A stretch of DNA of 64,000 nt from Lachnospiraceae bacterium (GTDB taxonomy: Bacteria > Bacillota > Clostridia > Lachnospirales > Lachnospiraceae): the NCBI GenBank assembly GCA_024681595.1, contig JAILAN010000101.1, positions 1,976 to 65,975 of the forward strand, given 5' to 3'. The notes under the pieces were generated by a model that saw only the letters and a list, made by a program, of their open reading frames with translations, was not told the origin of the DNA and made no database searches. Shown here piece after piece: positions 3,133-44,877 of this stretch. The stretch's first letter is position 1. Every line of letters begins with the position of its first letter. The position numbers were made by a program, and so were the translations under genes.

Positions 3133-4049
3133 TGAGCAACACTAAGAAAAGAAGAAAAGTCGATCCCGCAGACAGACTGCTGTCCATCGTGACATATGTG
3201 ATATATACATTTTTCACTTTTGTCTGCGTATATCCTTTCTATTATATTTTTATAAACACGATCAGTTCCAACGAACTGAGTCAGAGAGGTAAGATCACAT
3301 TCTGGCCCAAAGAGTTCCATCTGACGAACTATATCAATGTTTCACATATACCGTCGCTTATGGATGCGTTTAACGTATCGTTAAGAAGGACGATCATTGG
3401 AACCCTGTTTACGGTTGCCACATCTGCATTTCTCGGATACATGTTCACCCGCGAGACAATGTGGAAGCGCAAGATTTGGTACAGATTCGTGGTTGCAACC
3501 ATGTATTTCAACGCCGGTATAATCCCGTGGTTTATAACCATGAAGAACCTTGGCTTATACAATAACTTTTGGGTATATATACTGCCCACTGCGGTATCAC
3601 CTTTCTACATCGTACTCTGCAAGACCTTCGTCGAATCGATACCCAAGGAACTGACGGATGCCGCCGAGATCGATGGCGCAGGTACACTCAGAACTTTCTG
3701 GAGCATCATTCTGCCGGTCATCAAGCCTATTTTGGCTACGGTTGCCATTTTCACTGCGGTTGCACAGTGGAACTCGTTCCAGGATACTCTGCTGCTGGTT
3801 ACGGATCAGAAACTGTATACACTTCAGTTTACTCTGTACAACTATATCAATCAGGCCAGTTCTTTAAAATCACTGGTCAATAATGCCACTAACTCGTCAT
3901 CCCTGGCGGCGAGCCTTGCTCACGCAGCTAATGCCACATCTATCAGGATGACGGTTACGATAGTGGTAGTATTCCCCATCATTCTGGTATACCCGATCTT
4001 CCAGAGATTCTTTGTAAAGGGTATCATGATCGGGGCAGTCAAAGGTTAA
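3132..4049 (+). CDS. Sugar ABC transporter permease (LplC/MalG type)
   Basis: EAA loop 'ELTDAAEIDGAGTLRTFWSIILPVIKP'. The start overlaps the previous stop (TGATG). Confidence 0.9.
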   Translation: MSNTKKRRKVDPADRLLSIVTYVIYTFFTFVCVYPFYYIFINTISSNELSQRGKITFWPKEFHLTNYINVSHIPSLMDAFNVSLRRTIIGTLFTVATSAFLGYMFTRETMWKRKIWYRFVVATMYFNAGIIPWFITMKNLGLYNNFWVYILPTAVSPFYIVLCKTFVESIPKELTDAAEIDGAGTLRTFWSIILPVIKPILATVAIFTAVAQWNSFQDTLLLVTDQKLYTLQFTLYNYINQASSLKSLVNNATNSSSLAASLAHAANATSIRMTVTIVVVFPIILVYPIFQRFFVKGIMIGAVKG

Positions 4050-4145
4050 CTTCAGTTATCCGATGCGGAATGCCGGATGTTTGATCATGTCGGATGTCCG
4101 TCGTACCGATAAGGAGAACTGCAAAATTTATAGGGAGGTATAAAT

Positions 4146-5921
4146 ATGAAGTTAAGAAAAGTAACAGCATTACTTCTTGCCGGTGCCATGGTAATGGCTT
4201 CTCTGGCCGGATGCGCCGGACAGGGCGGTGCAGGCACTGCAAGCACAGGTGATGCAGCTACAACTTCGGATGCAGGCGCTGCTACAACTACAACAGACGC
4301 TTCTTCCGGCGATGCTGCAGCATCAGGCGACAAGATGGTTTTCGAGATCTATGATGCAGCCGCTAACTATCAGGGAATGCAGACAGGTTGGTTCCAGAAG
4401 GTAGTTAACGACAGATTCAATGTGGATCTTAACATCATCGCTCCTCAGGTAGCAGGTGATGCCATCTATCAGACCAGAGCAAGTTCAGGAAACCTCGGAG
4501 ACATCGTTCTTCTGGATTCTACTGATTTTGCTGACTGCGTTAAGTCAGGTCTTGTTAAGGACATCAGCGCAGATCTGGGCAACTATCCCAACCTTATGAA
4601 GTTCAAGGAGCAGATAGATGTCTACAACCAGGGCCTTGAAGGCAATGCAGGTGAGATTTACGGTATTCCTACAGAAATGATGGATACTTCACCTTCGTCT
4701 TATTCTCAGGACGTTATCTACTCAAGCCCTCTGTTAAGATGGGACCTTTACAGCGAACTCGGATGCCCCGACATTGCTGACCTCGACGGATTGCTTGATG
4801 TTCTCGATCAGATGATGCAGGCTCATCCTACCAATGATGCCGGTGATCCTGCTTATCCCTTCTCTCTTTGGGCAGACTGGGATGGCGGTGACGGAATGCT
4901 CGGTATCGCTAACGTTGTTCAGCTGACAACATGGTATGGTGAAAAGTTAAGAGGTTCAATGATCCTCAAGCCCGACGGAACATTTACTCCTTTAACTGAC
5001 AAGACAGCTTCTTACTACAAGATCCTTAAGTTCCTCAACAATGCATACAGAAGAGGACTTGTTGATCCTGATTCAGGAACACAGGATTGGAACTCTGCAT
5101 GTGCCAAGATGGGTGCAGGTCAGGTTTACCTCATGTGGTACAGCTGGCAGGTTGGTTTCTGGAACAGCCAGGAAAGACTTGAGAACGGTACAGCATTTAT
5201 CTTCATTCCCGTTCAGGATCAGAACTACTACTGTGATGCAGATGCATACTTCGGATCAGGCCGTGTATTCGGTGTAGGATCTCAGGTAGACGATGCCAAG
5301 TACCAGAAGATCATGGAATTCCTTGACTGGTATGCTTCTCCCGAAGGAGCTACTTTCGAGCACACAGGAATCAAGGACTTTAACTATACTGTAAATGATG
5401 ACGGTACATATACCGCTATCAACACCAACGCTCTGATGGATAACCTTCCGGTTCCCGAAGAGTACGGCGGAGGCGGCTACAATGATGGTAACAACGCTAT
5501 CAACCAGTGGATCGTAAGTTCAAACTCAACCAACCCTGAGACCGGTGAGACCTATAACAAGGAATACTGGAAGTCATGGAAGGAAGCTACATCTACCCAG
5601 ATGAAGAAGGATTGGCAGGCAAGATTCAATGCTGAAGAGCCGGTTGACTGGATGAAGAAGAATAACAAGCTCGTTATCAGCCCTAACGTATCAGTATCAC
5701 TTGATTCAGATACAGCTGATATTGCAGTTATCCGTAACCAGTGTAATGAGATCGTATGTGACTACTCTTGGAAGATGATCTTCGTTAATGACGATGCTTC
5801 ATTCGACGCTATGTGGGATGAGATGACCGCTTCATTAGAGGGTAACGGATTCAAGGATCTGTGCGATTTCGACCAGACCAAGCATCAGAAAGAGCTTGAT
5901 GCCAAGAACAAGTACAAATAA
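4146..5921 (+). CDS. Large extracellular solute-binding lipoprotein (LplA type)
   Basis: Lipoprotein signal 'LLLAGAMVMASLAGC' followed by an Ala/Thr/Asp/Ser-rich tether. Length is about 590 aa. GGGAGG RBS upstream. Last gene of the transporter trio. Confidence 0.85.
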   Translation: MKLRKVTALLLAGAMVMASLAGCAGQGGAGTASTGDAATTSDAGAATTTTDASSGDAAASGDKMVFEIYDAAANYQGMQTGWFQKVVNDRFNVDLNIIAPQVAGDAIYQTRASSGNLGDIVLLDSTDFADCVKSGLVKDISADLGNYPNLMKFKEQIDVYNQGLEGNAGEIYGIPTEMMDTSPSSYSQDVIYSSPLLRWDLYSELGCPDIADLDGLLDVLDQMMQAHPTNDAGDPAYPFSLWADWDGGDGMLGIANVVQLTTWYGEKLRGSMILKPDGTFTPLTDKTASYYKILKFLNNAYRRGLVDPDSGTQDWNSACAKMGAGQVYLMWYSWQVGFWNSQERLENGTAFIFIPVQDQNYYCDADAYFGSGRVFGVGSQVDDAKYQKIMEFLDWYASPEGATFEHTGIKDFNYTVNDDGTYTAINTNALMDNLPVPEEYGGGGYNDGNNAINQWIVSSNSTNPETGETYNKEYWKSWKEATSTQMKKDWQARFNAEEPVDWMKKNNKLVISPNVSVSLDSDTADIAVIRNQCNEIVCDYSWKMIFVNDDASFDAMWDEMTASLEGNGFKDLCDFDQTKHQKELDAKNKYK

Positions 5922-6054: not shown

Positions 6055-8451
6055 ATGCTCGAGGTAAACAAAGGAACCAGTTCACATATAAATAATTTTA
6101 TAAAGGATCAAAAAGGGATTTACTTTGAGTCCGATGCAGCATTGCTGTTCGTTGGCGCCGTGTCGGATAATATCGTACATATCCGTTACAGTACGGACGG
6201 CATCAGGCAAAGGCAGGGATATTCTTTTGTTACTGCCGAAGAATCTGATCCTGAAACAAGCATGGAATTATCCATGGATGATGACCGGGCGATGATCCGG
6301 CTTAAAGATCTTACATTGGAGATCGACAGATCAAACAGCGCTGTCACTTTTATGGACGGTGAAGGGAATATTCTGCTTCGTCCCGATAATGAGTGCCCGT
6401 TTGATCTTGATAAATATGAACTTTACAGCGTTAATGACGAAGACAAGACGATCGAAAAGATCAGTACTCCGGACGGTATAAAGGAAAAGATAATACCCGG
6501 GTCAAAGATCTTTGATCGTTTTACATACAGATGCAGATATTCGTTTAGATTTGATGATAATGAGAACCTGTACGGCCTCGGCCAGTTTGAGGACGGATAT
6601 GGTTCGCTAAGAGGACAGAGGCTGTACCTTAATCAGGCCAATCGAAGGATAATCATTCCCTATATGATATCCACCAGAGGCTACGGGATGCTTTTTAATA
6701 TGCATTCCCCTATGATATTTAATGATACTGCGGCCGGCTCCTATATATATGCATCATCCTCTGATGCGGTTGATTTTTATTTTGTTAACGGCGGCGATAT
6801 TCAGGGTGCTCAGAGAGCATACAGATTTCTGACCGACAAGGCTGCGATCATGCCCAAATGGGCCTTTGGGTACATGCAGTCACAGGAAAGATACGAGACT
6901 CAGGAAGAGATATTGAAGATCGCAAAGGAATACAGAAATCGCGGTATAGGACTTGATACCGTGATCCTGGACTGGTGCTCATGGCCCGATGGTCAATGGG
7001 GACAAAAGACATTTGATGAACAAAGGTTTCCAAATCCAAAGGATATGGTCAGATCTCTGCATGATATGAACACTCATTTTATGATATCCATCTGGCCGAA
7101 TATGGATGAGGGAACTCCCAATCACAGGGAATTTACGGACAACGGTCTTATGCTTAAGGATTCAAATACTTATAATGCATTTGATCCCGAAGGCAGACTG
7201 TTGTATTGGAAGCAGGCAAATGAAGGGTTATACCAAAACGGTGTTGACGCATGGTGGTGTGATAACTCCGAACCGTACGATCCGAGCTGGACTCAAAAGG
7301 TTAAGCCCGATCCTGCCAAACACTTTGATGATTATGTTGAAGAAACCTTCAGACATATGGATCCTGATTATTCGAATACATACGCGTATTTCCATGCCAT
7401 GGGAGTATATGAAGGACAAAGGACCGAGAATGCCCGGATAATCAATGCAGATGGATACGATCCGCTCCTTTGGGATAAAAGAGTTGTAAACCTCACCAGA
7501 AGCGCATATCTGGGATCACAGAAATACGGAACGATATTATGGTCGGGAGATATAGATGCCAAATGGAGCGTTCTTAAAAAACAGATAGCTGCAGGCCTTA
7601 ATTTCTGTGCATCCGGAATGCCATACTGGACTCTCGACATCGGTGCTTTCTTTATTAAAAAAGGAGATTACTGGTACTGGAACGGAGAGTATGAAGGCGG
7701 ATTTGACGACGAAAAATACAGGGAACTCTTTGTCAGATGGTATTGGTTCGGAGCGTTCCTTCCGATCTTCCGCGGGCACGGGACCGATATCCGCAGAGAA
7801 CTGTTTTATTGCAAGAACGGGAAAAGGGCATATTATGATTCACTTATAAGAGCCAACAGGCTTAGATACGAATTGTTCTATTACATCTATTCGTATGCCG
7901 GCAGATGCTATGTTACGGACGAGAATATAATGAATCCTCTGGCTGTGGATTTTAGCAGCGATGACAGAGCATGTGCGGTCAATGATCAGTATATGTTCGG
8001 ACATGAATTGATGGTATGCCCCGTTTATGAACCAATGGAAGACGGCAAAGATACTGTTACGAGACGTGTTTATCTGCCCGAAGGGATCGGCTGGTATGAT
8101 TATATTTCCAAGTGCCGCTACGCAGGAGGCCAGTATATCGATGTTGATGTACCGATAGACAGTATTCCGATATTTGTCCGTGACGGCTCGATAATACCCA
8201 GGACCAACATAGACGATCTGTCGGTTCTGTCGACCGAAACCTTAAAAAACGAGATCGAACTTGATGTATACGGTAACGGATACAGGGGATTCCTTTTTTA
8301 TGATGATGCAGGGGACGGCTATGGATATGAGAGCGGTCAGTACGTTCTGAAGAAGTTTGAGTATGACAGCGATAACGGCAATATCAGCGAAGACATCATC
8401 TGCGACGGATATGCGACCGATATCCGGATCACACATATAAACTTGATTTGA
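6055..8451 (+). CDS. Glycoside hydrolase family 31 (alpha-glucosidase/alpha-xylosidase-like), cytoplasmic
   Basis: GH31 nucleophile-region motif 'GVDAWWCDNSEPY' and 'ILWSGDIDAKW'. About 800 aa with no signal peptide. Confidence 0.85.
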   Translation: MLEVNKGTSSHINNFIKDQKGIYFESDAALLFVGAVSDNIVHIRYSTDGIRQRQGYSFVTAEESDPETSMELSMDDDRAMIRLKDLTLEIDRSNSAVTFMDGEGNILLRPDNECPFDLDKYELYSVNDEDKTIEKISTPDGIKEKIIPGSKIFDRFTYRCRYSFRFDDNENLYGLGQFEDGYGSLRGQRLYLNQANRRIIIPYMISTRGYGMLFNMHSPMIFNDTAAGSYIYASSSDAVDFYFVNGGDIQGAQRAYRFLTDKAAIMPKWAFGYMQSQERYETQEEILKIAKEYRNRGIGLDTVILDWCSWPDGQWGQKTFDEQRFPNPKDMVRSLHDMNTHFMISIWPNMDEGTPNHREFTDNGLMLKDSNTYNAFDPEGRLLYWKQANEGLYQNGVDAWWCDNSEPYDPSWTQKVKPDPAKHFDDYVEETFRHMDPDYSNTYAYFHAMGVYEGQRTENARIINADGYDPLLWDKRVVNLTRSAYLGSQKYGTILWSGDIDAKWSVLKKQIAAGLNFCASGMPYWTLDIGAFFIKKGDYWYWNGEYEGGFDDEKYRELFVRWYWFGAFLPIFRGHGTDIRRELFYCKNGKRAYYDSLIRANRLRYELFYYIYSYAGRCYVTDENIMNPLAVDFSSDDRACAVNDQYMFGHELMVCPVYEPMEDGKDTVTRRVYLPEGIGWYDYISKCRYAGGQYIDVDVPIDSIPIFVRDGSIIPRTNIDDLSVLSTETLKNEIELDVYGNGYRGFLFYDDAGDGYGYESGQYVLKKFEYDSDNGNISEDIICDGYATDIRITHINLI

Positions 8452-8478
8452 AACAGTTTTAGTGCGAAAATAGTTCCT

Positions 8479-9342
8479 ATGAAAAAAATATCTTTATGTG
8501 TGATCGCACTTATTATATGTATCGGAATGCTGTCCGCACCTGCGATAAAGGCTGCGGCAGCTCCTACTCCGACACCTGTTGCTACGGGCAAAAGTGTTGA
8601 AGAACAGTTATATGAATACTATACCGTACTTGCCCAGCAGGAGCAGGCCAAAGGTAATGCAAAAGCCGCAGACGATGCCAGAAAAAAGGCCCAGGAGTAT
8701 GCGGCTATTGTTAATGCACAAAAGAACGGTAACTATAAACCCGGGATCATAGCCACTCCCCGCAAGAGTGTTCTTGACACGGCCACATCATATTACGATA
8801 CAGGAAACGGATGGTCATCATCTCTGGATGGGATGACATTTAAACATAATAAGACAGGCGAGATCTATTACAGCTATAAAGGGCTGACGACCGATTATCC
8901 TGATTTCGGCAAGTTCATATATACCGGAGATACCTGCAAGGTAATGGTATGTGCCTGCTGTGAGAGATTAAAAAGATACGGGATACTCACCTATGAAAAT
9001 GCGTGTGACAAGATGAAAGCCGAAGGCTATTCGCTTAGAAGCGCCGATAAGAGAGCACTGATACAATGGGTTGACCCGAATGTAACCCAGGTCAGATTTA
9101 CCCATAATGCCATGATATGTGTCTTTGAGAGGGATTATTCTCTGACACCGTATGCAACTCCCTCGGAGTTCTATAATGATTCATATCTTTATACACCTAC
9201 TCCGTCGGCTACACCTTATCCGTATGACTCTAATGAAAGGATCTATGCTACTCCGACACCAACTGCCACAGTAACTCCTGTCTATACACCGACAGCAACT
9301 CCGTACAGTGTTCAGGATGCTGAAAGATACAGGGTTAACTGA
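8479..9342 (+). CDS. Secreted hypothetical protein with Pro/Thr-rich termini
   Basis: Signal peptide 'MKKISLCVIALIICIGMLSAPAIKAAAA'. TPTP-type repeats at both ends. Central Cys cluster 'CKVMVCACCERLKRY'. I recognise no domain. Confidence 0.6.
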   Translation: MKKISLCVIALIICIGMLSAPAIKAAAAPTPTPVATGKSVEEQLYEYYTVLAQQEQAKGNAKAADDARKKAQEYAAIVNAQKNGNYKPGIIATPRKSVLDTATSYYDTGNGWSSSLDGMTFKHNKTGEIYYSYKGLTTDYPDFGKFIYTGDTCKVMVCACCERLKRYGILTYENACDKMKAEGYSLRSADKRALIQWVDPNVTQVRFTHNAMICVFERDYSLTPYATPSEFYNDSYLYTPTPSATPYPYDSNERIYATPTPTATVTPVYTPTATPYSVQDAERYRVN

Positions 9343-10114
9343 TGTGAGTAGAAAGACTTCGATAGCGTATAAGATAATCAGATCTCTCGTATGGTTTTTC
9401 TATCCGAAGATGAGAGTATACGGAGCTGAAAACCTGCCGGACGGCCCGTTTATCGCTGCAGGCAATCATTCCCAGATGAATGGTCCGATCGCCTGTGAAC
9501 TGTATTTTCCCGGTAAACATTATATATGGTGCATAGCGCAGATGATGGACATGAAACTTGTTCCTGCTTATGCATATAATGATTTCTGGTCCCAAAAGCC
9601 TGTCTGCGTCAGATGGTTTTACAGGATTCTTTCATATATCATCGCACCGATAGCTCAGTGTATTTTCACAAATGCCGATACGATCCCTGTATATAAGGAT
9701 AAAAGGATCATAGAAACAGTAGACCTTTCTTTGTGTCGTCTTAAAGAAGGAGCCGGTGTTGTGATCTTTCCTGAAGACTATACGGAATATAACAATATAG
9801 TTCACAGATTTCAGCGGGGATTCGTATCTGTAGCAAAGAGATTTTATGCTGAGAGCAAAGTTCCGGTTCCATTTGTACCGCTGTATGTATGTCCGGCGCT
9901 TAAAGCTCTTTACATCGGGAAACCCATAACATATGATCCTGATCGGCCGGTAAAAGAAGAACAGGAGAGGATCTGCAAATACCTTATGGATTCGATATCC
10001 GAAATGGCATATGAGTTACCCAAACACAGAGTGGTCCCGTACCCGAACATATCTAAAAAAGAATATCCTTACAATGACAGGATAAAGCCCAAAAATGAAG
10101 AAACCAGCAGTTGA
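9308..10114 (+). CDS. PlsC-family lysophospholipid/glycerol-phosphate acyltransferase
   Basis: 'AAGNHSQMNGP' occupies the H-x4-D block position, though the Asp position is Asn. 'VVIFPEDYTEY' is a FPEG-type block. The start is uncertain: ATG 9308 overlaps the upstream gene, and GTG 9344 is an alternative. Confidence 0.7.
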   Translation: MFRMLKDTGLTDVSRKTSIAYKIIRSLVWFFYPKMRVYGAENLPDGPFIAAGNHSQMNGPIACELYFPGKHYIWCIAQMMDMKLVPAYAYNDFWSQKPVCVRWFYRILSYIIAPIAQCIFTNADTIPVYKDKRIIETVDLSLCRLKEGAGVVIFPEDYTEYNNIVHRFQRGFVSVAKRFYAESKVPVPFVPLYVCPALKALYIGKPITYDPDRPVKEEQERICKYLMDSISEMAYELPKHRVVPYPNISKKEYPYNDRIKPKNEETSS

Positions 10115-27254: not shown

Positions 27255-28139
27255 ATGGAAGAATTGATCAATAGCTTTATGACATATTTACATAACGTAA
27301 AGAAGATGTCACAGAATACGGAGCTATCATATCGGAGAGATCTTAATAAGGTTGTTTCATACCTTAATGACCAGGGAATAGATGATATAAAGAAAGTCAC
27401 ATCCACAAATCTTACCAGTTACGTAATGTATCTTGAGAAGAATAAATTCTCTGCGGCAACTGTTTCCCGTAATATTGCTTCATTAAAGGCCTTTTACCAT
27501 TATCTGGTTAAGGAAGGATTAGTCGATGATGATGCGGCTACGCTTCTTCATGCGCCTAAGATTGAGAAGAAGATGCCGGAGATTCTTTCTATGGAAGAAG
27601 TAGTAAGACTCCTCGAACAGCCTTCAGGCGAGTCCTCAAAGGAGATCAGGGATAAGGCTATGCTTGAACTCCTGTATGCTACGGGTATCAGGGTTACTGA
27701 ACTTATCACCTTAAAGACTGAAGATGTGAACCTTAATATGGGTTACATTGTATGCCGTGACGCCAATAAGGAACGTGTAATTCCTTTCGGAAATGAGGCA
27801 AAAAAGGCTCTGACAAAGTATCTTGCAGGTACGAGATCGGCAATGGTCGCTGATCCCAATTCGGAATTTTTGTTTGCAAACTGTTCCGGACAGCCTATGT
27901 CAAGGCAGGGATTTTGGAAGCTGATCAAGTATTATGCAAAAAAGGCCGGTATAGTAGCTGATATTACACCTCATACTTTGAGGCATTCTTTTGCTGCACA
28001 TCTGGTTGAGAATGGCGCGGATCTTCGAAGCGTTCAGGAAATGCTCGGCCATTCTGATATATCAACAACACAGATCTATGCTCACATGAACCATTCACAT
28101 ATCAAGGAAGTATATGCGAAGGCACATCCGCGAGGTTAG
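27255..28139 (+). CDS. xerD: Tyrosine recombinase XerD/XerC type
   Basis: 'HTLRHSFAAHLVENGADLRSVQEMLGHSDISTTQIYAH' contains the R..H-x-x-R..Y catalytic set. 294 aa with no phage genes nearby. The choice of XerD over XerC is uncertain. Confidence 0.8.
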   Translation: MEELINSFMTYLHNVKKMSQNTELSYRRDLNKVVSYLNDQGIDDIKKVTSTNLTSYVMYLEKNKFSAATVSRNIASLKAFYHYLVKEGLVDDDAATLLHAPKIEKKMPEILSMEEVVRLLEQPSGESSKEIRDKAMLELLYATGIRVTELITLKTEDVNLNMGYIVCRDANKERVIPFGNEAKKALTKYLAGTRSAMVADPNSEFLFANCSGQPMSRQGFWKLIKYYAKKAGIVADITPHTLRHSFAAHLVENGADLRSVQEMLGHSDISTTQIYAHMNHSHIKEVYAKAHPRG

Positions 28140-37124: not shown

Positions 37125-38288
37125 GTGGGAGATTTAAGATCGACTGTAGCTGTCATACCATGTGACGACTATGATGAAGAAAAGGTATACAGATCATTAA
37201 AAACAGGGATAGATGCCCTTGGAGGGATTGAATGCTTCGTAAGACCGGATGAAAAGATACTGGTAAAACCCAATCTTTTAAGTGCAGCTACTCCAGATAA
37301 AGCATTGACTACACATCCTTCCGTTCTTAAGGCAGTACTCAGGATACTTAATGAATACGGATGCGACGATGTAAAACTGGGAGATTCACCGGGACATGGC
37401 AGCTGTGAAGGTGCTGTCAGAACCTTAGGCCTGAAAGAGGCTGAAATGTCCGGAGCCGTGATCACACCTATGAATGAAGAAATTCACGTGAATTTTGCGG
37501 ACGGCATAACCTGCAGGGATTTTTATTTCTGCAAAGAAATTTTGGAATCAGATGCGATCATCAATGTGTGCAAGATGAAGACGCATGCACTGGAGAGAAT
37601 AACAGGGGCTGTCAAGAACGTATACGGATTCATATGCGGATATCGCAAGGCACAGGGACATGTTAAATTTCCAAATGATACAGTATTTGCGCGCATGCTT
37701 GCGGATATACACCGCTATACAAAACCCAGATTGCATATTATGGACGGGATTGTTGCAATGGAAGGAAATGGACCGGCTGCAGGTACTCCGGTTAACATGA
37801 ATGTTCTTATTGTATCAGACGATCCGGTTGCTGTGGATACGGTATTCTGCTATCTTATAAATCTTGATCCCGAGATCGTACCTACCAATTCTCAGGGAAT
37901 GAGAATGGGTATTGGAAATGATGAGGAAGAAAAGATAGATATTCTGCTTTGCCAGAATAATGACACCGTGAAGTTAAGCCCCGGCGAACTTTTTGCCATG
38001 CTTGGCAAAGGGGACTATGATGTGAGCAGGAAACGTCCCCCCAAAAGCTTCTTGAGCAGATACTCGGGCCTGATGACTCGGCTGCAGAAACGCCCGGTCA
38101 TAGACAGGTCTTTATGCGTCAAGTGCGGAATCTGTGTCGACCATTGTCCGGTTCCGGGCAAGGCGGTAGACTTTAAAAACGGTAAAGACAAGCCGCCGGT
38201 TTATGATTATTCAAAATGTATCAGATGTTATTGCTGCCAGGAGATGTGCCCCAGACATGCAATAAAACCAGGCAGAGGTATTATATGA
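37125..38288 (+). CDS. DUF362-domain protein with a C-terminal 2x[4Fe-4S] ferredoxin module
   Basis: 'VLVKPNLL' and 'HIMDGIVAMEGNGP' are DUF362 motifs. Fe-S cluster motifs: 'CVKCGICVDHCP' and 'CIRCYCCQEMCP'. GTG start. Confidence 0.75.
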   Translation: MGDLRSTVAVIPCDDYDEEKVYRSLKTGIDALGGIECFVRPDEKILVKPNLLSAATPDKALTTHPSVLKAVLRILNEYGCDDVKLGDSPGHGSCEGAVRTLGLKEAEMSGAVITPMNEEIHVNFADGITCRDFYFCKEILESDAIINVCKMKTHALERITGAVKNVYGFICGYRKAQGHVKFPNDTVFARMLADIHRYTKPRLHIMDGIVAMEGNGPAAGTPVNMNVLIVSDDPVAVDTVFCYLINLDPEIVPTNSQGMRMGIGNDEEEKIDILLCQNNDTVKLSPGELFAMLGKGDYDVSRKRPPKSFLSRYSGLMTRLQKRPVIDRSLCVKCGICVDHCPVPGKAVDFKNGKDKPPVYDYSKCIRCYCCQEMCPRHAIKPGRGII

Positions 38289-39664
38289 ACAAAAAAGGCA
38301 GTGCAAGTATAATCATTCTTACTATCATCGTTGTTTTGCTGATCCTGGCAATAGGTGGGATGGTCTGTATCAACGTTTATAAGACAGATCGCCATATAGA
38401 AACGACAGAAGCAGACAATACAGCCACACCATCTTCAAATGAAACAGCAGCTCAGACCATGGATGAAAAACCAATCGAACCTGCTGATGATGAAAAATCC
38501 GATCCGGGAGTGAGAGATGACACTCCGGCAAATGAAACGGCATCGGATACTGAGAATAAGGATATTCAGCAAAGAATAGAAACAGTCAGGTCTATTACTG
38601 AAGTATATTCAAGAACAGCGCCAGAAGGACATGAAGATATGAGAGGACTTAATGCGACAGAACTGGTAAGCGAGCTTCGATGCGGATGGAATCTGGGTAA
38701 TAGTCTTGATTCGGCCGGCTCAGAGACTAATTGGGGAAATCCCGCTACCACAAGGGAAATGATAGATGCCATAGCAGCAAAAGGGTTCAATACCATTAGG
38801 ATCCCGGTCTCATGGGGCCAGTATACCCAGGTGCAGTCAGACACTTATGTAATAAATCCCGAATTCCTACAGCGAGTCGGAGATGTGGTAGATTATGCTG
38901 TAGAAAACGACATGTATGTTATACTTAATACGCATCATGAAACGGGCTGGCTGATCCCTACTGATAAGATGATGGGAGATTCGGCTGATAAGTTTCAGGA
39001 TATATGGACACAGATAGCCTTGTATTTTAAGGATTACGGTGATCATCTGATATTTGAGGGCCTGAACGAGCCGCGTGATGAAGGCGGAGAAAAGGAATGG
39101 GAAGGCGGAACAGCGGAAAACCGCAGGATCATCAGTGAACTTGAGGATTCTTTTATTGAAACAGTACGCGCAACCGGCGGAAATAACGAAAAGCGTCTCC
39201 TTCTTATCACATCTGAAGCAGCATGCTTTATGGATTCGGCATTAAAGGATGTTCATGTACCGGATGATCCGTATGTTGGAGTCTCGATTCATGCATATAC
39301 TCCTTACGATTTTACTTTCTCTCACGAAGGTGATTACGATGACTGGGATGGTTCTCACAAGAGCGATATAGTCTGGACGTTTAACCAGCTAAATAAATAT
39401 TTCCTTAGCAAGGGCATTCCTGTTGTAATGACCGAATTTGGAGCTGAGAGAAAAGGCGGTTCAGACGATAACAATGATGAAGAAGTTGTAAAATGGATGA
39501 GAGATTATATGTCACTTGCCAGCAAGTATAAAGTTCCTGTAGTGATATGGGATAATAATCTCGTTAACGGCAACGGAGAACGTTTTGGTCTCTTTAACCG
39601 CAAGACATTAAAGTGGGAACGCGAAAAGATCGTCGATACCATGATAGAAGGATATCAGCCCTGA
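38285..39664 (+). CDS. Glycoside hydrolase family 5 endoglucanase-like enzyme, membrane-anchored/secreted
   Basis: N-terminal anchor 'IIILTIIVVLLILAIGG'. GH5 motifs: 'GFNTIRIPVSW', acid/base 'FEGLNEPR', nucleophile 'VVMTEFGA'. The start overlaps the upstream stop (ATGA). Confidence 0.85.
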   Translation: MNKKGSASIIILTIIVVLLILAIGGMVCINVYKTDRHIETTEADNTATPSSNETAAQTMDEKPIEPADDEKSDPGVRDDTPANETASDTENKDIQQRIETVRSITEVYSRTAPEGHEDMRGLNATELVSELRCGWNLGNSLDSAGSETNWGNPATTREMIDAIAAKGFNTIRIPVSWGQYTQVQSDTYVINPEFLQRVGDVVDYAVENDMYVILNTHHETGWLIPTDKMMGDSADKFQDIWTQIALYFKDYGDHLIFEGLNEPRDEGGEKEWEGGTAENRRIISELEDSFIETVRATGGNNEKRLLLITSEAACFMDSALKDVHVPDDPYVGVSIHAYTPYDFTFSHEGDYDDWDGSHKSDIVWTFNQLNKYFLSKGIPVVMTEFGAERKGGSDDNNDEEVVKWMRDYMSLASKYKVPVVIWDNNLVNGNGERFGLFNRKTLKWEREKIVDTMIEGYQP

Positions 39665-39677
39665 ACATAAAGGGATA

Positions 39678-41495
39678 ATGGTATCAAGAAGGCTTCAAAC
39701 AGCCGATAAGAGGGATAAAATGGGAATAAAGGAAAATCATTATAACGCTTTTATCAGTTACAGACATTCGGAACTTGACAGCAAAGTTGCGATCGAGGTA
39801 CACAGAAAACTCGAGCGATTTAAGCTACCTGCCAATATCAGAAAAAACTTCCCCAAGGATCATCAGAAGATAGAGCGTGTATTCAGAGATCAGGATGAAC
39901 TGCCTCTTGCTGATAATCTGTCTGATCCAATTGAACAGGCACTTCGAAATTCGGATTATCTGATCGTTATCTGTTCTCCCAGACTACCGGAATCCAAATG
40001 GTGTCAGAGGGAAATGGAGACATTTAAAAAACTGCACGGTCAGGACAGGATCCTGGCTATTTTGGCTGAGGGCGAACCGGAGGAATCATTTCCTGATGCA
40101 ATCTGTTATAAGGATGTGGTTTCCAAAGATGAGAACGGTAATGAGGTAATCAGTAAGATCCCGGTTGAACCGCTGGCGGCAGATGTAAGGGCTGATTCTC
40201 CCCGCAAGAGAAGCGCCATGATAAATGATGCGGTCTTAAGGCTGGCTGCACCGATGTTTAATCTGGGATATGATGACCTTAAACAAAGACACAGGGAACA
40301 GAGAATAAAAAGGATAGCAATAGCAACCAGCATCGCTACCGGAGTGTCTGTTATACTCGGCCTTATTTTTATGTGCCTGGCCCTTAAGATCAATTCCCAG
40401 AAGAAAGTTATAGAATCCCAACACGCAGAGCTGGAAAAACAATACGATATACAGCAGGAAAAGTATTGCGAGTCCATGAACATCGTTTCGGAGGATCTGC
40501 TGAAACAGGGCCTGAAAAAAGAGGCGGTTTATGCGATCAGAAGTGCAATGCCGGATTCGGACAAGGATGATTCGAAACCTCTGCTTCCGTCAAACATTAA
40601 GACCCTTACGCAGACACTGAATATTTATGATCTGAATGTTTTCGTTCCGTCGGATATAATCCCTGTGGATGATTTTGATACTACAAGATTTGATTCCTAC
40701 TACGGAGATTATGACTTCCTGGTCGAATATATGGGCGGCCAGACTATAATGTGCTCCGGACAATATGATCGTGATCATATACTGCTGATAACTGATTCCT
40801 GCAGATTCTTTTTGTATGATACTGAAGAGAATGTCCTTCTGGATTATACCAGAGGTCTCTTTAACAATCCTCCTGAGGGCTATGTCTTTGGGGCTGCATA
40901 TGAGGACGGGGAGATATTTATTCAGTTTAATGATGCGGATTATGTTTCATGCTTTGAGATCAAAACACCGGATGGTCTTGAAACGGCCGGACAGATCGCT
41001 GTTAAGGACATAAGAACATCCCGCGGCCTTAATATAGTTGAAGACGGTGAAGATATAATATCTGATGACGGTGAATATGTAATGAGGCTGGGAATCGACC
41101 ATTCACTTGAGGTTTATAAGGCCGATGAGGATGAACCGTTTAAGATCCTATATGATATCAGAGGAGAGTTTTATGATCTTATCAGTACTGATAACGGCAA
41201 TAAATATATCCTCCGCGGAGTCGGATCGTCCTCGCTCCTTTTTAATGAAGAGTTTGACATAATAGCTGAAATACCGTATTTTTATGAATGCGCGGATGAT
41301 GGTATGATCGTGCTCTATACGGTAGCGGATGACGCTACATACTATGATCTGTATTATGTTCCACTGGCCGATTATGATGATCTTATTGATGAGGCTGACA
41401 AGGAACTTAAAGGATTTAAACCATCCGAAGAATTTCTTGGGAAATATAAAATGCTGGATAATAAAACAGAAGATAGTGTGGGTGATATCGAATGA
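39678..41495 (+). CDS. Membrane-anchored TIR-domain protein (cytoplasmic N-terminal TIR, one TM, extracytoplasmic beta-rich C-terminal domain)
   Basis: 'YNAFISYRHSELD', 'SDYLIVICSP', 'ESKWCQREMETF' (Glu codon at 40011-40013) and 'EPLAADVR' are TIR hallmarks. TM segment 'IAIATSIATGVSVILGLIFMCLALKI' is preceded by 'KQRHREQRIKR'. An alternative start is ATG 39720. Confidence 0.75.
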   Translation: MVSRRLQTADKRDKMGIKENHYNAFISYRHSELDSKVAIEVHRKLERFKLPANIRKNFPKDHQKIERVFRDQDELPLADNLSDPIEQALRNSDYLIVICSPRLPESKWCQREMETFKKLHGQDRILAILAEGEPEESFPDAICYKDVVSKDENGNEVISKIPVEPLAADVRADSPRKRSAMINDAVLRLAAPMFNLGYDDLKQRHREQRIKRIAIATSIATGVSVILGLIFMCLALKINSQKKVIESQHAELEKQYDIQQEKYCESMNIVSEDLLKQGLKKEAVYAIRSAMPDSDKDDSKPLLPSNIKTLTQTLNIYDLNVFVPSDIIPVDDFDTTRFDSYYGDYDFLVEYMGGQTIMCSGQYDRDHILLITDSCRFFLYDTEENVLLDYTRGLFNNPPEGYVFGAAYEDGEIFIQFNDADYVSCFEIKTPDGLETAGQIAVKDIRTSRGLNIVEDGEDIISDDGEYVMRLGIDHSLEVYKADEDEPFKILYDIRGEFYDLISTDNGNKYILRGVGSSSLLFNEEFDIIAEIPYFYECADDGMIVLYTVADDATYYDLYYVPLADYDDLIDEADKELKGFKPSEEFLGKYKMLDNKTEDSVGDIE

Positions 41496-43462
41496 AAAAA
41501 AGGTTGTTTCTTATTCTGACCATAGTCTTATTATGTCTTGGGTTATGTGCGTGCAGCAAGACCTCGTCCAAGAATGATAAGGACGATCTTGAAGAAACCG
41601 AAGAAGAGGACAGTTCTTCAAAAAAGAAAAATAAGAAAAAGAAGGATAAAGATAAGGAAGATGGCGATGCGGTAAAGGTTTATTTTGAATCTGATTATCC
41701 GGAGGATCTGGATGATTATGAGGAATTTATCCTTGAAGAAGATGATCAATCCGTAAATATCGTTTATGCAGCATCAAAGAGCGTTAAAAATTTCAGTTTC
41801 TATGATATTTCATCAATAGATACCAAAGAAGACTCAGATGATTTTGAATATACAGGATATGAGATATATTCTGCTGATAAGCTGTCTTCGAAAAAACCTC
41901 TGGTTGTTACGCTGGTTTTCCATGGGGATATGCCGGAATATGGATTTTCCTATGATGACAGCGATGGTAACAGGCAGTATTTTCTGATCGGATTAAGCGG
42001 TAAAGACGGAAGCCTTAAGACAACTTCGATACCTGAGATAGTCATTTCCGAAGAATCTCCGCTCTTTGCCGATATGGAAAACTATCAGTTCTATTTTATG
42101 AGCGGAGCCGGCGGCTGGGAAACCAATATGAGAGTTTATGCTGACGGAAGCTTTGACGGAACATATTATGACTATGATATGGGAGATACCGGTCCGGGCT
42201 ATGAGGAGAACGGAACCGTATACTGGTGTGACTTTAACGGCAGACTCGGTAATCCGGTTGAAACAGATCTTAACTGTTATGAAGCAGACATCATTGAACT
42301 TAACTACGATGTAGAACCCGGCAAGGAAGTTATTGAAGACGGGGAACGAAAGATATACACAGGTGCTTATGGTCTGGAGAATGCTCAAAAACTTACGATC
42401 TATGCTCCGGAGATGAATACGAGTCTCTTGCCGGAGGATTACCTGAGCTGGGTGTACTGGGAATTCTATGATCCGGATCTTGGTGATATGGCATTGCCAG
42501 TTGAAATGCCGTTTTATGGTTTATTCAATGCAGAGGATGGATGCGGTTTCTATTCAGAAAGCCTACTGGTAAACAGGATCGTACTAAGCAATACAGTTAA
42601 GCTGCCGGGAACCGAAAACATTACCGATAACTATGATTACCTTGACCAGACATATGAAATAAAAGACAGAAACGAAGAACTCGGTTTTACGATATACAAT
42701 ACATCCTTCTTTAATGAAGAGCATCTTTCGCTTGATGATAATCCGGATGAACTGGTTGAACTATGCTTTTCAAAGCTTGGTATAACCGATACGGAAAATA
42801 TCTATACCTTTGATAAAGAGGACGGAGAGTATACTTCGTCAATGTATAATCTGGTGCATATAGATTTTGGTAAGGACTGCCTGTATTCCATATATACTGA
42901 TATGGATTCCGGAGTGGACTATGAAGCTCGAATATATGTGGCGAATAACTTTATTTATTTCTATGCGATCATAATGGATGAGGACTCGATCCTTCAGGGA
43001 GAGGCAGAGTCATTTATCCTCGCGGGTGTCCAGGTATTTGGGATATATTCACAGGATCATTATAAATCCGGCATTATGGACAGCCCCGAAGGCAGCATAT
43101 CTGACACGATACTGGCAAATGTACAGAGCAAGACTTCAACAGACGGGAAAACATACTATTTCGTAGCGGATGAAGTAGAATGGGTTTCATCCGGTGACGA
43201 AGAGGCTATGAAGAAATACGGCCTGACAGAGGATGATATGTTCGATGATTATGCTATAGTTGGGCAGGACGGTAAGACCAGGGATTATAAGATAGCAGAC
43301 AGCGCGACATTCTTTCTCCAGTACGAACCCGGCCTTAAGAATCCTTATATGGGATATTCGATCATGGATTATCTCAATGACGGATCCAAAGAGATTATGA
43401 TGAAGCTCTATCTGAATGAAGACGGTGAAGTTATATTCGGGTATGAACCATACACGCCCTGA
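41492..43462 (+). CDS. Large orphan lipoprotein (no recognised domain)
   Basis: Lipobox 'LLCLGLCAC', then a Lys/Asp/Glu-rich linker and about 580 aa of Asp/Tyr/Glu-rich sequence. ATGA overlap with the TIR gene stop. Confidence 0.7.
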   Translation: MKKRLFLILTIVLLCLGLCACSKTSSKNDKDDLEETEEEDSSSKKKNKKKKDKDKEDGDAVKVYFESDYPEDLDDYEEFILEEDDQSVNIVYAASKSVKNFSFYDISSIDTKEDSDDFEYTGYEIYSADKLSSKKPLVVTLVFHGDMPEYGFSYDDSDGNRQYFLIGLSGKDGSLKTTSIPEIVISEESPLFADMENYQFYFMSGAGGWETNMRVYADGSFDGTYYDYDMGDTGPGYEENGTVYWCDFNGRLGNPVETDLNCYEADIIELNYDVEPGKEVIEDGERKIYTGAYGLENAQKLTIYAPEMNTSLLPEDYLSWVYWEFYDPDLGDMALPVEMPFYGLFNAEDGCGFYSESLLVNRIVLSNTVKLPGTENITDNYDYLDQTYEIKDRNEELGFTIYNTSFFNEEHLSLDDNPDELVELCFSKLGITDTENIYTFDKEDGEYTSSMYNLVHIDFGKDCLYSIYTDMDSGVDYEARIYVANNFIYFYAIIMDEDSILQGEAESFILAGVQVFGIYSQDHYKSGIMDSPEGSISDTILANVQSKTSTDGKTYYFVADEVEWVSSGDEEAMKKYGLTEDDMFDDYAIVGQDGKTRDYKIADSATFFLQYEPGLKNPYMGYSIMDYLNDGSKEIMMKLYLNEDGEVIFGYEPYTP

Positions 43463-43496
43463 TCATATATGTTTTATAGAACGGAGGTAACTATTT

Positions 43497-43790
43497 ATGG
43501 CAGATTTTGTTAGTATTGATGCAGAAGACGATCAGTTCGCGTATCGTTATGATACGCAGCTGCTTATTGACAGGAGGGACAAGGATCTTGATGAAGACGA
43601 AATAGCCGATTATATCACGGATAATATCGAGGGAAACAGTCTTATCGCTGCAGGGGACGAGGACCTGGTCAAGATTCATTTCCATACAAATGAACCCTGG
43701 AAACTTCTTGAATACTGTAACGGTGTCGGAGAGATATACGATATCGTAGTGGAAGATATGATTAGACAGTCTGCAGGCCTGCAGGGCTGA
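43497..43790 (+). CDS. Stand-alone small acidic protein resembling the middle domain of YloV/FakA (DAK2-fusion) proteins
   Basis: 'GNSLIAAGDEDLVKIHFHTNEPWKLLEY...GEIYDIVVEDMIRQ' matches, from memory, the pattern 'GDSL.V..D..L.KVH.H...PG.VL...G.L..I.I.NM..Q' found after the DhaL/Dak2 domain of FakA-type proteins. GGAGG RBS upstream. Confidence 0.55.
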   Translation: MADFVSIDAEDDQFAYRYDTQLLIDRRDKDLDEDEIADYITDNIEGNSLIAAGDEDLVKIHFHTNEPWKLLEYCNGVGEIYDIVVEDMIRQSAGLQG

Positions 43791-43809: not shown

Positions 43810-43842
43810 AGATCCCGGAGCAATTGCTTCGGGATCTTTTTA
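43810..43842 (+). terminator. Rho-independent terminator ending the 37125-43790 co-directional block
   Basis: AGATCCCG / CGGGATCT stem with a 12-nt loop, followed by TTTTTAT. Confidence 0.7.
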
Positions 43843-43865: not shown

Positions 43866-44762
43866 TTACCGATTCGCTCGCACGTTTTCATCACCAAGGA
43901 AAAACAGTGCAACTGTACCAGGCCCGACATGTGAACCGGTAACAGGCTCGTAGCATACCGAAAGGATCTCTTTTGGAGGGTTATTACGGTTCAGCAGATC
44001 GATAAGGTAATCAGTATCTTCTTGATTATCTGAATGAGCGATCCCGACTATCTGACTGCCCGGGTCTACCACAAATCGGTCATACCTTTCCGCCATATTT
44101 TTGATCGCATTTTTAGTACCGCGCACTTTTGCTATGTTTATTATCTGCCCCTGTTCGTTTCCCATCAGGATTGGTTTGATGTTAAGCAGATTACCGATGA
44201 TCATTGCAGCATTTGATAGCCTTCCTGTACGCTGCAGATGCTTGAGTGAATCTACGGTAAAAACCTGATACATGCATTTTGACAGCTCAGTCAGTCTGTT
44301 GTAGCATTCGTCTATACCAAGTCCCTGCTTCCTCAGCTCTATGGCTTTTAACAATATAATACCTTCGCCGAGGGAAGCAGCTTTGGTGTCAAGCATATAG
44401 AACTTTCTGTCCGGATATTCCTCCCGGAGCATTTTCTGAGCTAACAGACTGGAATTATATGAACCACTGATACCTGATGACATGGAAACATAAAGGACAT
44501 CCTGCCCTTTTTTGGCATATTCCGAAATACAGTCATAGTATGTCCCCGGAGATACCTGTGATGTGTTGTATAATGTTCCCTTTTTTATTTCATCGTAGAA
44601 CCTTTTTCCGTCAAATGAATCTATATCGATGCATTGCATGAGATCAGATTCGTTTCCTTTGGGATAATATGAAAACGGAACCAGCGTTACATCCTCCGGA
44701 CTAAGCATTTTCATCGGGACGTTGCACGATGTATCAGATACGATAGCAAAACTCACGTTCAT
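43866..44762 (-). CDS. DegV-family fatty-acid-binding protein (FakB-like)
   Basis: 'FAIVSDTSCNVP', 'YNTSQVSPG', 'LYVSMSSGISGSYNS', 'GPGTVALFF' are DegV signatures. The ATG at 44762 has GGAGGA upstream. Confidence 0.9.
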   Translation of the reverse strand: MNVSFAIVSDTSCNVPMKMLSPEDVTLVPFSYYPKGNESDLMQCIDIDSFDGKRFYDEIKKGTLYNTSQVSPGTYYDCISEYAKKGQDVLYVSMSSGISGSYNSSLLAQKMLREEYPDRKFYMLDTKAASLGEGIILLKAIELRKQGLGIDECYNRLTELSKCMYQVFTVDSLKHLQRTGRLSNAAMIIGNLLNIKPILMGNEQGQIINIAKVRGTKNAIKNMAERYDRFVVDPGSQIVGIAHSDNQEDTDYLIDLLNRNNPPKEILSVCYEPVTGSHVGPGTVALFFLGDENVRANR

Positions 44763-44877
44763 TCCTCCTGACATAATCAACTCTACATATTGTAGTATAG
44801 AAAACTACATTTGGCAACCTTGACAATCATGTTTGACGGACTATTTTATTATATTGTGTGAATTCAATACAAAATAC

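Follow-up and report, generated by a model that had tools for sequence, protein, structure and literature searches.

In animals, Toll-like receptors (TLRs) and the IL-1 receptor (IL-1R) are single-pass proteins that join an outer repeat or sensor domain, built from leucine-rich repeats (LRR) or immunoglobulin (Ig) domains, to a cytoplasmic TIR domain lying directly at the membrane helix. Reviews of TIR architectures assign this receptor–transmembrane (TM)–TIR layout to animals, and list bacterial TIRs as TIR-only or TIR–nucleotide-binding domain (NBD)–repeat proteins (PMC9153377, PMC7075850). The present work concerns two adjacent genes, at positions 39678 to 43462 of a 64,000-nucleotide (nt) stretch of DNA from a Lachnospiraceae bacterium (assembly GCA_024681595.1, contig JAILAN010000101.1, positions 1,976 to 65,975; this whole stretch is called the window below). 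Gene 1 encodes a TIR-TM-WD40-like membrane protein and gene 2 a lipoprotein, and an earlier note on this DNA had proposed that the two form a surface-sensing TIR system. The available data separate the two genes, and they favour, with a confidence somewhat better than even, the view that the gene 1 product is a stand-alone, single-pass (N-in/C-out) outside-in receptor with an enzymatic TIR output, TLR-like but mirrored.

The likeness to animal TLR and IL-1R proteins comprises the single membrane pass, the outer sensor domain and the position of the cytoplasmic TIR directly at the membrane helix, and the logic of activation, that is, ectodomain-driven TIR oligomerisation, is likely to be the same. 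Three features set gene 1 apart. Its product is of type II, the TIR being N-terminal and a signal peptide absent, and not of type I like animal TLRs; its ectodomain is a predicted WD40-like propeller and not an LRR or Ig domain; and its TIR keeps the catalytic Glu motif, whereas the TIRs of animal TLRs act as scaffolds. There is no evidence for common descent of the two whole architectures; in function, the animal layout is the nearest analogue.

By sequence, the TIR of gene 1 belongs with the bacterial NADase TIRs (AbTir, TcpB/BtpA, ThsB, TIR-STING, TIR-SAVED, SPARTA TIR-APAZ, SpbK), with which it shares the TIR fold. Those proteins are cytosolic, are cued by phage proteins, cyclic nucleotides or guide RNA, and are usually encoded in defence islands together with a partner that acts as effector or sensor, whereas gene 1 encodes a membrane-anchored protein with an outer sensor, lacks such a partner and lies in the core chromosome. 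To our knowledge, all characterised bacterial TIR enzymes are indeed cytosolic and respond to intracellular cues. A catalytic-type TIR placed behind a TM helix, with a variable propeller on the outer side, suggests that outside events may be coupled to NAD+ chemistry inside bacteria, which is the logic of animal TLRs. No description of a bacterial TIR-TM-extracytoplasmic-propeller receptor was found in the searchable literature, which does not cover subscription-only papers.

Two further groups of proteins share part of this plan. The STAND TIR-NBD-WD40/TPR/LRR proteins of bacteria and plants also place a TIR at the N-terminus and repeat sensors at the C-terminus, but they carry a central P-loop NTPase; gene 1 gives no NTPase match, has a TM helix and a stalk in that place, and would expose its repeats outside the cytoplasm. 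Reg_prop-type hybrid sensors, common in polysaccharide-degrading gut bacteria, are the second group. The hybrid two-component sensors of this type in Bacteroides couple an extracytoplasmic propeller through the membrane to a cytoplasmic output, as gene 1 is predicted to do, but their output is a histidine kinase with a response regulator instead of a TIR, and the propellers have no detectable sequence relationship.

Domain organisation and predicted topology of the TIR protein

Gene 1 (39678-41495, on the + strand like all the features of both genes given below) is an open reading frame (ORF) of 605 amino acids (aa) with Pfam matches and more than 2,250 homologues. Given their length and homologues at E = 0, the ORFs of genes 1 and 2 are not chance ones. 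Both were found as the earlier note had placed them, except that the start of gene 1 at 39678 is probably not the conserved one. Start-codon comparison points to M15 (ATG at 39720, with AGAGGG just upstream) as the likely true start, giving a protein of 591 aa; the identical homologue at NCBI (P0001) has this length, and the orthologues in the related loci L006 and L007 begin at the codon equivalent to M15. Residue numbers in this text count from the 39678 start, so that E112 becomes E98 if counted from M15.

The cytoplasmic TIR domain (aa ~20-193, 39735-40256) was delimited from Pfam matches, the secondary structure of an AlphaFold2 (AF2) model and identity within the family, and it includes a highly conserved 'EPLAADVR' strand and a helix at 175-193. 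Its identity, claimed before from hallmark motifs, is directly supported by profile hidden Markov model (HMM) scores above the Pfam gathering cut-offs: 47.7 bits for TIR_2 (PF13676; cut-off 28), 27.9 for TIR (PF01582; cut-off 21.3) and 26.5 for ThsB_TIR (cut-off 21.2). The putative catalytic Glu, E112, is encoded by the GAA codon at 40011-40013, exactly where the earlier note had located it, and alignment places it in the motif S-x-W-C-x-x-E. Fifty family members, with 36-82% identity to gene 1, were aligned, and E112, S106, W108, C109, R67, R70 and D71 are invariant among them. Of 203 family sequences, at least 200 have the S-x-W-C-x-x-E motif; the remainder comprises ORFs that are cut short or wrongly called, and a single degenerate copy from a tandem pair. 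A tandem pair of family paralogues was observed at locus L020 (7980-9737 and 9747-11180), the second of which (477 aa) has a degenerate TIR without the motif.

The best sequence matches of gene 1 in the Protein Data Bank (PDB) are bacterial TIRs, namely Brucella TcpB/BtpA and an AbTir-type 'TIR domain protein', and in this comparison E112 aligned with the Glu of W-x-x-x-E in both. This Glu is the catalytic residue in NADase TIRs (AbTir, BtpA, SARM1). Judged by sequence, therefore, the TIR of gene 1 appears to be of the NAD+-cleaving type, with its putative catalytic Glu conserved, and it is from this residue that we infer enzymatic activity. A TIR devoid of catalysis, acting by homotypic interaction as a scaffold that organises a membrane complex while the propeller serves as an envelope-binding module, would agree with the wide use of TIR domains as interaction modules (PMC7075850), and an effector or product-sensing partner was not identified in the window. 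Such a role is nevertheless rather improbable: pure scaffold TIRs are generally free of the constraint seen in the near-perfectly conserved S-x-W-C-x-x-E, the closest solved sequence relatives (TcpB, AbTir-type) are NADase-type TIRs of bacteria, and a recurrent DHH/DHHA1 phosphoesterase neighbour, described further below, points to nucleotide chemistry.

Hydropathy analysis revealed one hydrophobic segment in gene 1 (aa 212-237) and no N-terminal signal peptide. In line with what had been noted from the sequence, a basic juxtamembrane helix (YDDLKQRHREQRIKR) leads into this single TM helix and is followed by a large outer region; helix and TM segment together occupy 40269-40388, and the TM segment itself 40311-40388 (hydropathy, AF2). 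Exactly one TM segment, at an equivalent position, was found in all 50 aligned members, and in every one of them the Lys and Arg residues among the 15 on the N-terminal side of the segment outnumber those on the C-terminal side (mean 5.9 versus 2.4). Since the positive-inside rule is satisfied throughout, the predicted orientation has the TIR inside and the C-terminus outside. The TLR-like topology proposed earlier (TIR inside, one TM helix, a propeller-like domain outside) is thus also the predicted one, but in mirrored form, with the N-terminus inside.

The same topology bears on whether gene 1 could encode a host-directed, Tcp-like effector, by which a commensal TIR would interfere with host TLR signalling. 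The family is carried by gut and rumen bacteria, and Brucella TcpB is among the best PDB sequence matches. A TIR that is N-terminal, without signal peptide and anchored to the membrane from the cytoplasmic side would, however, be neither exposed nor secreted, and the large extracytoplasmic propeller would be left without a role, which makes this explanation extremely unlikely.

The AF2 model of gene 1, built with the 50-sequence alignment, has a mean predicted local distance difference test (pLDDT) score of 83.4. In it, aa 22-193 adopt a TIR fold and aa 198-276 form a single unbroken helix across the membrane; stalk helices follow at 280-289 and 304-313, and there are short helices at the C-terminus. 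The extracytoplasmic helical stalk (aa 238-315, 40389-40622), defined from the AF2 helices and from the alignments of longer relatives, is common to all size classes of the family, the longer relatives aligning to gene 1 from aa 1 to ~317.

Beyond the stalk lies the predicted extracytoplasmic WD40-like beta-propeller (aa ~320-565, 40635-41372), the fold class of which is directly supported by the AF2 model, Foldseek and profile searches. Most of this beta domain is modelled with pLDDT above 90, and DSSP assigns it ~20 strands grouped 1+4+4+4+4+3, a string that would correspond to five four-stranded blades closed by the first strand. When the gene 1 model was compared with the PDB by Foldseek, WD40 propellers (G-beta, DCAF1, COP1, PRPF19) were retrieved with E ~1e-6 and probability 1.0. 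A profile HMM search with the ectodomain, covering 1.84 billion representatives, returned three groups of matches: the ~585-aa class to which gene 1 itself belongs; the C-terminal 140-240 residues of longer TIR-family classes; and many long proteins in which one blade (profile ~150-200, query 'SDDGEYVMRLGIDHSLEVY...') matches 8-16 times each, these last being canonical WD40 proteins according to Pfam. The stretch 'DDGEYVMRLGIDHSLEVY', quoted in the earlier note as an example of the short repeats of a beta-rich outer sensor, possibly a propeller, is the very blade that matches genuine WD40 repeats, and the Foldseek comparison which that note had suggested as a check agrees with its proposal. 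A word-indexed search with the ectodomain alone recovered close relatives only.

No other cytoplasmic modules attached to the same ectodomain were found in the profile search. The apparently TIR-less matches that it returned were rejected as truncated gene calls, a DHH-ectodomain chimera (P0140) and a protein with a degenerate TIR (P0145). P0140 consists of the C-terminal part of a DHH protein fused to the family ectodomain; it may result from a deletion or a misassembly, and again reflects the adjacency of DHH and TIR genes. In P0145, a divergent member of the family, Gln takes the place of the catalytic Glu.

The protein ends in a conserved helical tail (aa 566-592, 41373-41453; alignment consensus 'VPLxxYxxLIxEADxxLxGxxPSxExxxxYxML'), which is common to the 800-aa and 1000-aa classes, the tblastn matches of the longer relatives resuming at the C-terminus. 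Three size classes can be distinguished in the family (~585, 800-835 and 960-1070 aa), which have the TIR, linker, TM helix, stalk and C-terminal tail in common and differ in propeller content. Across the ~585-aa class, mean identity is ~65% for the TIR and linker and ~35% for the propeller/ectodomain. The size classes, like the identity contrast, fit an output that stays constant while the sensor attached to it varies.

Independence of the TIR and lipoprotein genes

Gene 2 (41492-43462) is an ORF for an orphan multi-domain lipoprotein of 656 aa. Hydropathy and conservation define a signal peptide with lipobox L18-C19-A20-C21 (41492-41554); the N-terminus reads MKKRLFLILTIVLLCLGLCA-C21, and C21, at the [AG]-C position, is conserved in the homologues, so that by its lipobox the product is classed as a lipoprotein. 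A K/D/E-rich tether follows (aa 22-58, 41555-41665), predicted to be disordered from pLDDT values below 50 for residues 16-58, and after it come ~600 well-modelled, beta-rich residues (AF2 pLDDT 83). Only 16 homologues, ~9 of them full length, were found among 5.8 billion protein clusters, and two of the gene 2 modules are also seen in further secreted proteins, alongside LprI, SLH or phosphodiester-glycosidase domains. Searches against Pfam and PADLOC gave zero matches, those in NCBIfam were sub-threshold and confined to the signal peptide and linker, and a profile comparison with PDB sequences gave only low-complexity matches in the tether. The previous description of gene 2, with a lipobox, a charged K/D/E linker and no recognisable domain, therefore stands. 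An attempt to identify the protein by Foldseek against PDB and BFVD was rejected: a global match was absent, and the local resemblances were only PsbP/DcrB-like, MucB-like or to a small phage lipoprotein. The phage protein in question is a 188-aa lipoprotein from an uncultured Caudovirales phage (BFVD A0A6J5RR90, probability 1.0, TMt 0.45); the domain similar to it in the gene 2 model (m99c0238dc118) also has a likeness to PsbP/DcrB-type folds.

The proposal that the two genes form an obligate system, with the lipoprotein as co-receptor of the TIR ectodomain, could draw on their adjacency in the window, where stop and start codons overlap as ATGA (41492-41495, as previously reported), on the surface exposure of both products, and on the presence of the pair in a second locus, L006. 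A comparison of one chromosomal slot, PadR-HAAS-DUF4097-DUF362-GH5-[X]-FakA_M-DegV-sugar ABC, argues strongly against it. In the window, X is the TIR gene followed by the lipoprotein gene; in L006 it is a TIR gene (82% identical) with a lipoprotein gene (a fragment, 72% identical); in L007 a TIR gene only (70%); and in L001-L003 a lipoprotein gene only (67%). Collinearity in blastn is exact, L001 lacking window positions 39661-41461 and L007 lacking 41453-43497. Outside this slot, L004 and L005 carry distant lipoprotein homologues in unrelated contexts and without a TIR gene, L008 and L009 carry TIR homologues with other neighbours, and tblastn searches of another 80 TIR-family loci, taken from genomes representative of their species, detected no gene 2 homologue. 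The families also differ in size, with 16 members for the lipoprotein against more than 2,250 for the TIR protein.

The overlap itself was rejected as a sign of coupling. It is replaced in L006 by a 19-nt spacer, and overlaps of 4-8 nt also join DUF362 to GH5 and HAAS to DUF4097 in the same array, where they are routine; accordingly, it reflects operon packing and not a functional link. Gaps between the genes of the array range from -8 to +103 nt, and the only strong intrinsic-terminator-like hairpin downstream (43810-43837, + strand; a 12-bp stem with 7 GC pairs and a T-run) comes after FakA_M, so that the PadR...GH5-TIR-lipoprotein-FakA_M array is probably one transcription unit. Gene 2 is thus an unrelated surface lipoprotein that shares an operon slot with gene 1 and is independent of it, and an obligate two-gene system is very unlikely. 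Lack of co-conservation of the pair had been named beforehand by the earlier note among its refuting outcomes, and the lipoprotein gene was found not to be co-conserved with the TIR gene. With this false lead removed, attention shifts to the TIR protein alone and to a DHH/DHHA1 gene that neighbours it at the level of the family.

Family context, candidate partners and proposed mode of action

Among the candidates that were scored, at least 2,254 protein-cluster matches belong to the TIR-TM-propeller family, and genomes taken as one representative per species contain at least 577 of its loci. Its hosts are nearly all rumen or gut Lachnospiraceae, several genomes carrying two or more copies, and they include the cultivable Butyrivibrio fibrisolvens D1, Butyrivibrio sp. 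MC2013 and the Lachnospiraceae strains G41 and KH1P17. Gene 1 is not an isolated novelty: NCBI already gives this functionally undescribed family the generic label 'TIR domain-containing protein'. A 1018-aa protein of Fusobacterium vincentii (L092:4974-8030) combines a TIR containing 'SPWCRKE' with a basic linker, a single TM helix, WD40-type repeats and a similar tail, and one encoded on a megaplasmid of Sinorhizobium sp. K101 (L091:4548-7304) has a TIR followed by one TM helix and TPR-like repeats. Seen in Fusobacterium and Sinorhizobium, the arrangement of a TIR inside, one TM helix and repeats outside is broader than one family. A PLD-like gene (3463-4563) of the Sinorhizobium locus extends into the start of the TIR gene.

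The genomic context of gene 1 is that of a core chromosome. The window has a uniform GC content (~41-46%), with no sign of a foreign island, and contains genes for RNase Y, HisRS, a Xer-type recombinase, two-component systems, sugar transporters and GH127, the immediate neighbours of the gene pair being PadR, HAAS, DUF4097, DUF362, GH5, FakA_M, DegV and sugar ABC/histidine kinase genes. Paralogue counts per genome and counts of neighbours in the family rest on 80 sampled loci (83 for the adjacency of DHH and TIR genes). The recurrent ones have housekeeping, signalling or envelope functions (GlnRS, PurH/IMP cyclohydrolase, GGDEF-EAL, Wzt-type ABC, GT2, AraC, DUF2225), and no defence genes were found among them. 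Neither did IMG/VR viral contigs or GenBank phages yield family relatives, and the sole plasmid copy lies on a 243-kb replicon of Butyrivibrio fibrisolvens.

PADLOC and NCBIfam gave only short, sub-threshold, domain-level matches to gene 1 (PDC-S66, SAVED_TIR, ThsB, ThcB4, FxsC), for which reason it is not considered a member of a named defence system. For Thoeris ThcB4 in NCBIfam the score is 24 bits, where the cut-off is 220; the match to PADLOC ThsB has E = 0.005 over 49 residues only, and that to SAVED_TIR spans only TIR residues 68-133. A ThsA-type effector (SIR2-SLOG, Macro, TM) is absent from the neighbourhood, and no SAVED or CD-NTase was found in gene 1 or its window neighbours. These scans bear out the remark made earlier that gene 1 lacks both a mobile-element context and a partner of Thoeris or CBASS type; the homologues that were checked likewise sit in the core chromosome and not in defence islands.

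Surface-triggered abortive infection, in which the propeller would detect phage adsorption or an envelope breach and the TIR would deplete NAD+ to kill or arrest the cell, has nonetheless to be considered. An NADase-type TIR with an invariant Glu, the weak domain-level PADLOC matches (PDC-S66, SAVED_TIR, ThsB), an ectodomain that evolves fast and varies between paralogues, and the presence or absence of the gene among close relatives could all be expected of such a function. The core-chromosome setting of the window and the 80 related loci, the single plasmid homologue in the absence of any from phages, and a synteny that holds between genera, something unusual in defence islands, speak against it, and the explanation is regarded as unlikely, though less so than those based on a scaffold, a host-directed effector or a two-gene system. 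The genomic context favours signalling over classical defence, while the fast evolution of the ectodomain and the presence/absence polymorphism are also compatible with defence.

Within the family, the only recurrent candidate partner of the TIR gene is one for a DHH/DHHA1 phosphoesterase of ~500-560 aa, found directly upstream and on the same strand in 21-22 of the 83 loci, with a gap of -28 to +128 nt and in all three size classes. At L010, for example, the DHH gene occupies 6273-7964 and the TIR gene 7980-9734; the other pairs are in L017, L022, L023, L029, L051, L052, L055, L060, L066, L068-L070, L073, L075, L078, L082, L083, L085 and L087-L089. About seven further loci have the DHH gene in a divergent, convergent or nearby arrangement. 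Eleven of the paired loci share one syntenic block and ~12 have unrelated flanks, the latter indicating that the pair is maintained as a unit. In a tree of the TIR region, the clade next to that of the window, L006 and L007 (L010, L017, L008, L013) has an adjacent DHH gene throughout. The DHH and GGGH motifs are intact in 26 of 26 full-length DHH proteins, which fit none of the named subfamilies. In about a quarter of the family loci, the arrangement recalls pairs of a synthase and a phosphodiesterase for nucleotide second messengers, such as those formed by DisA/CdaA and the DHH/DHHA1 enzyme GdpP, and would suggest a make-and-break pair for a nucleotide product. Unlike DisA/CdaA-GdpP, the link is purely genomic, the DHH protein has no named subfamily, and its gene is absent from the window; no DHH homologue was found in the Fusobacterium, Sinorhizobium or B. 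fibrisolvens loci either.

Two other kinds of neighbour were noted. Multi-TM proteins of ~605 aa without a Pfam match are encoded after the TIR gene at L090:8757-10571 and L044:10493-12319 (Butyrivibrio orthologues, 67% identical), and in Fusobacterium at L092:8034-9860, after a 4-nt gap. As a general partner this downstream membrane protein was rejected, since the Butyrivibrio (B. fibrisolvens) and Fusobacterium proteins show no significant similarity to each other (E = 0.08) and the Butyrivibrio one recurs only at the orthologous locus L044; the two share only a C-terminal 'EH(K/L)RW..F(Y/H)Y' motif. At L008, a patatin-like phospholipase gene (7761-8654; Patatin + DUF6363) overlaps the end of a gene for a 587-aa TIR protein by 4 nt and is a possible lineage-specific effector candidate. 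A divergent upstream DHH gene and GGDEF and GGDEF-EAL genes flank this locus.

In the proposed mode of action of the stand-alone receptor, the N-terminal TIR would be joined rigidly to the TM helix through the short basic juxtamembrane helix, with the stalk, the fast-evolving propeller and the tail outside. Binding of an extracellular or envelope ligand, or a perturbation of the propeller, would alter the oligomeric state or the packing of the stalk/TM helices, and this would bring the TIR domains together. The activity of TIR NADases requires oligomerisation, their known activation principle, which is the reason for supposing that the TIR domains are activated by being brought together. Once assembled, they would cleave NAD+, resulting either in its depletion or in an ADP-ribose-derived nucleotide signal, and in many relatives the upstream DHH/DHHA1 enzyme may process or remove the TIR product.

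A more far-reaching version holds that the family is a class of outside-in receptors and not a suicide defence, in which the membrane-tethered TIR would respond to its ligand by making an NAD-derived messenger that the upstream DHH/DHHA1 enzyme degrades or processes. This version is speculative and, as a whole, more likely wrong than right by a clear measure. If true, gut and rumen Firmicutes and Fusobacteria would possess a second-messenger pathway that has so far gone unrecognised, and prokaryotes a functional counterpart of TLR signalling.

Several observations weigh against a stand-alone receptor with an enzymatic output. The conserved Glu is necessary for NADase activity, but is no proof of it. 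The Foldseek TM-scores to solved propellers are only 0.1-0.25, as would be expected if the blade number differs from that of solved WD40 propellers, and the putative closure with five blades is read from the strand count. Neither an effector nor a DHH gene is present in the 64-kb window, which leaves the copy studied here with no evident downstream pathway, and no more than roughly a quarter of the sampled loci show the DHH link, which could in part be inherited synteny. Finally, gene 1 is dispensable, as its presence varies among close relatives. If the stand-alone receptor is accepted, a rough division among biological roles would give the largest share, not quite half, to environmental or envelope signalling, a distinctly smaller one to other roles, and the smallest to surface-triggered phage defence.

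Further observations in the window

A 294-aa tyrosine recombinase (27255-28139; Phage_integrase + SAM_1) of XerC/D size is encoded between the housekeeping genes for aspartate aminotransferase and HisRS, with no mobile element or tRNA associated with it in the window. Upstream of gene 1, the DUF362/4Fe-4S gene (37125-38288) and that of a signal-anchored GH5 cellulase (38285-39664) are two distinct ORFs that overlap by ATGA; in L001, L006 and L007 the two are called as one fused ORF of 842-883 aa, which may be a real fusion/split polymorphism or a frameshift. Downstream of gene 2, a 97-aa ORF (43497-43790) corresponds to the FakA-like middle domain only. This ORF is conserved in all of the syntenic relatives; the DegV gene next to it (43866-44780) is divergently oriented.

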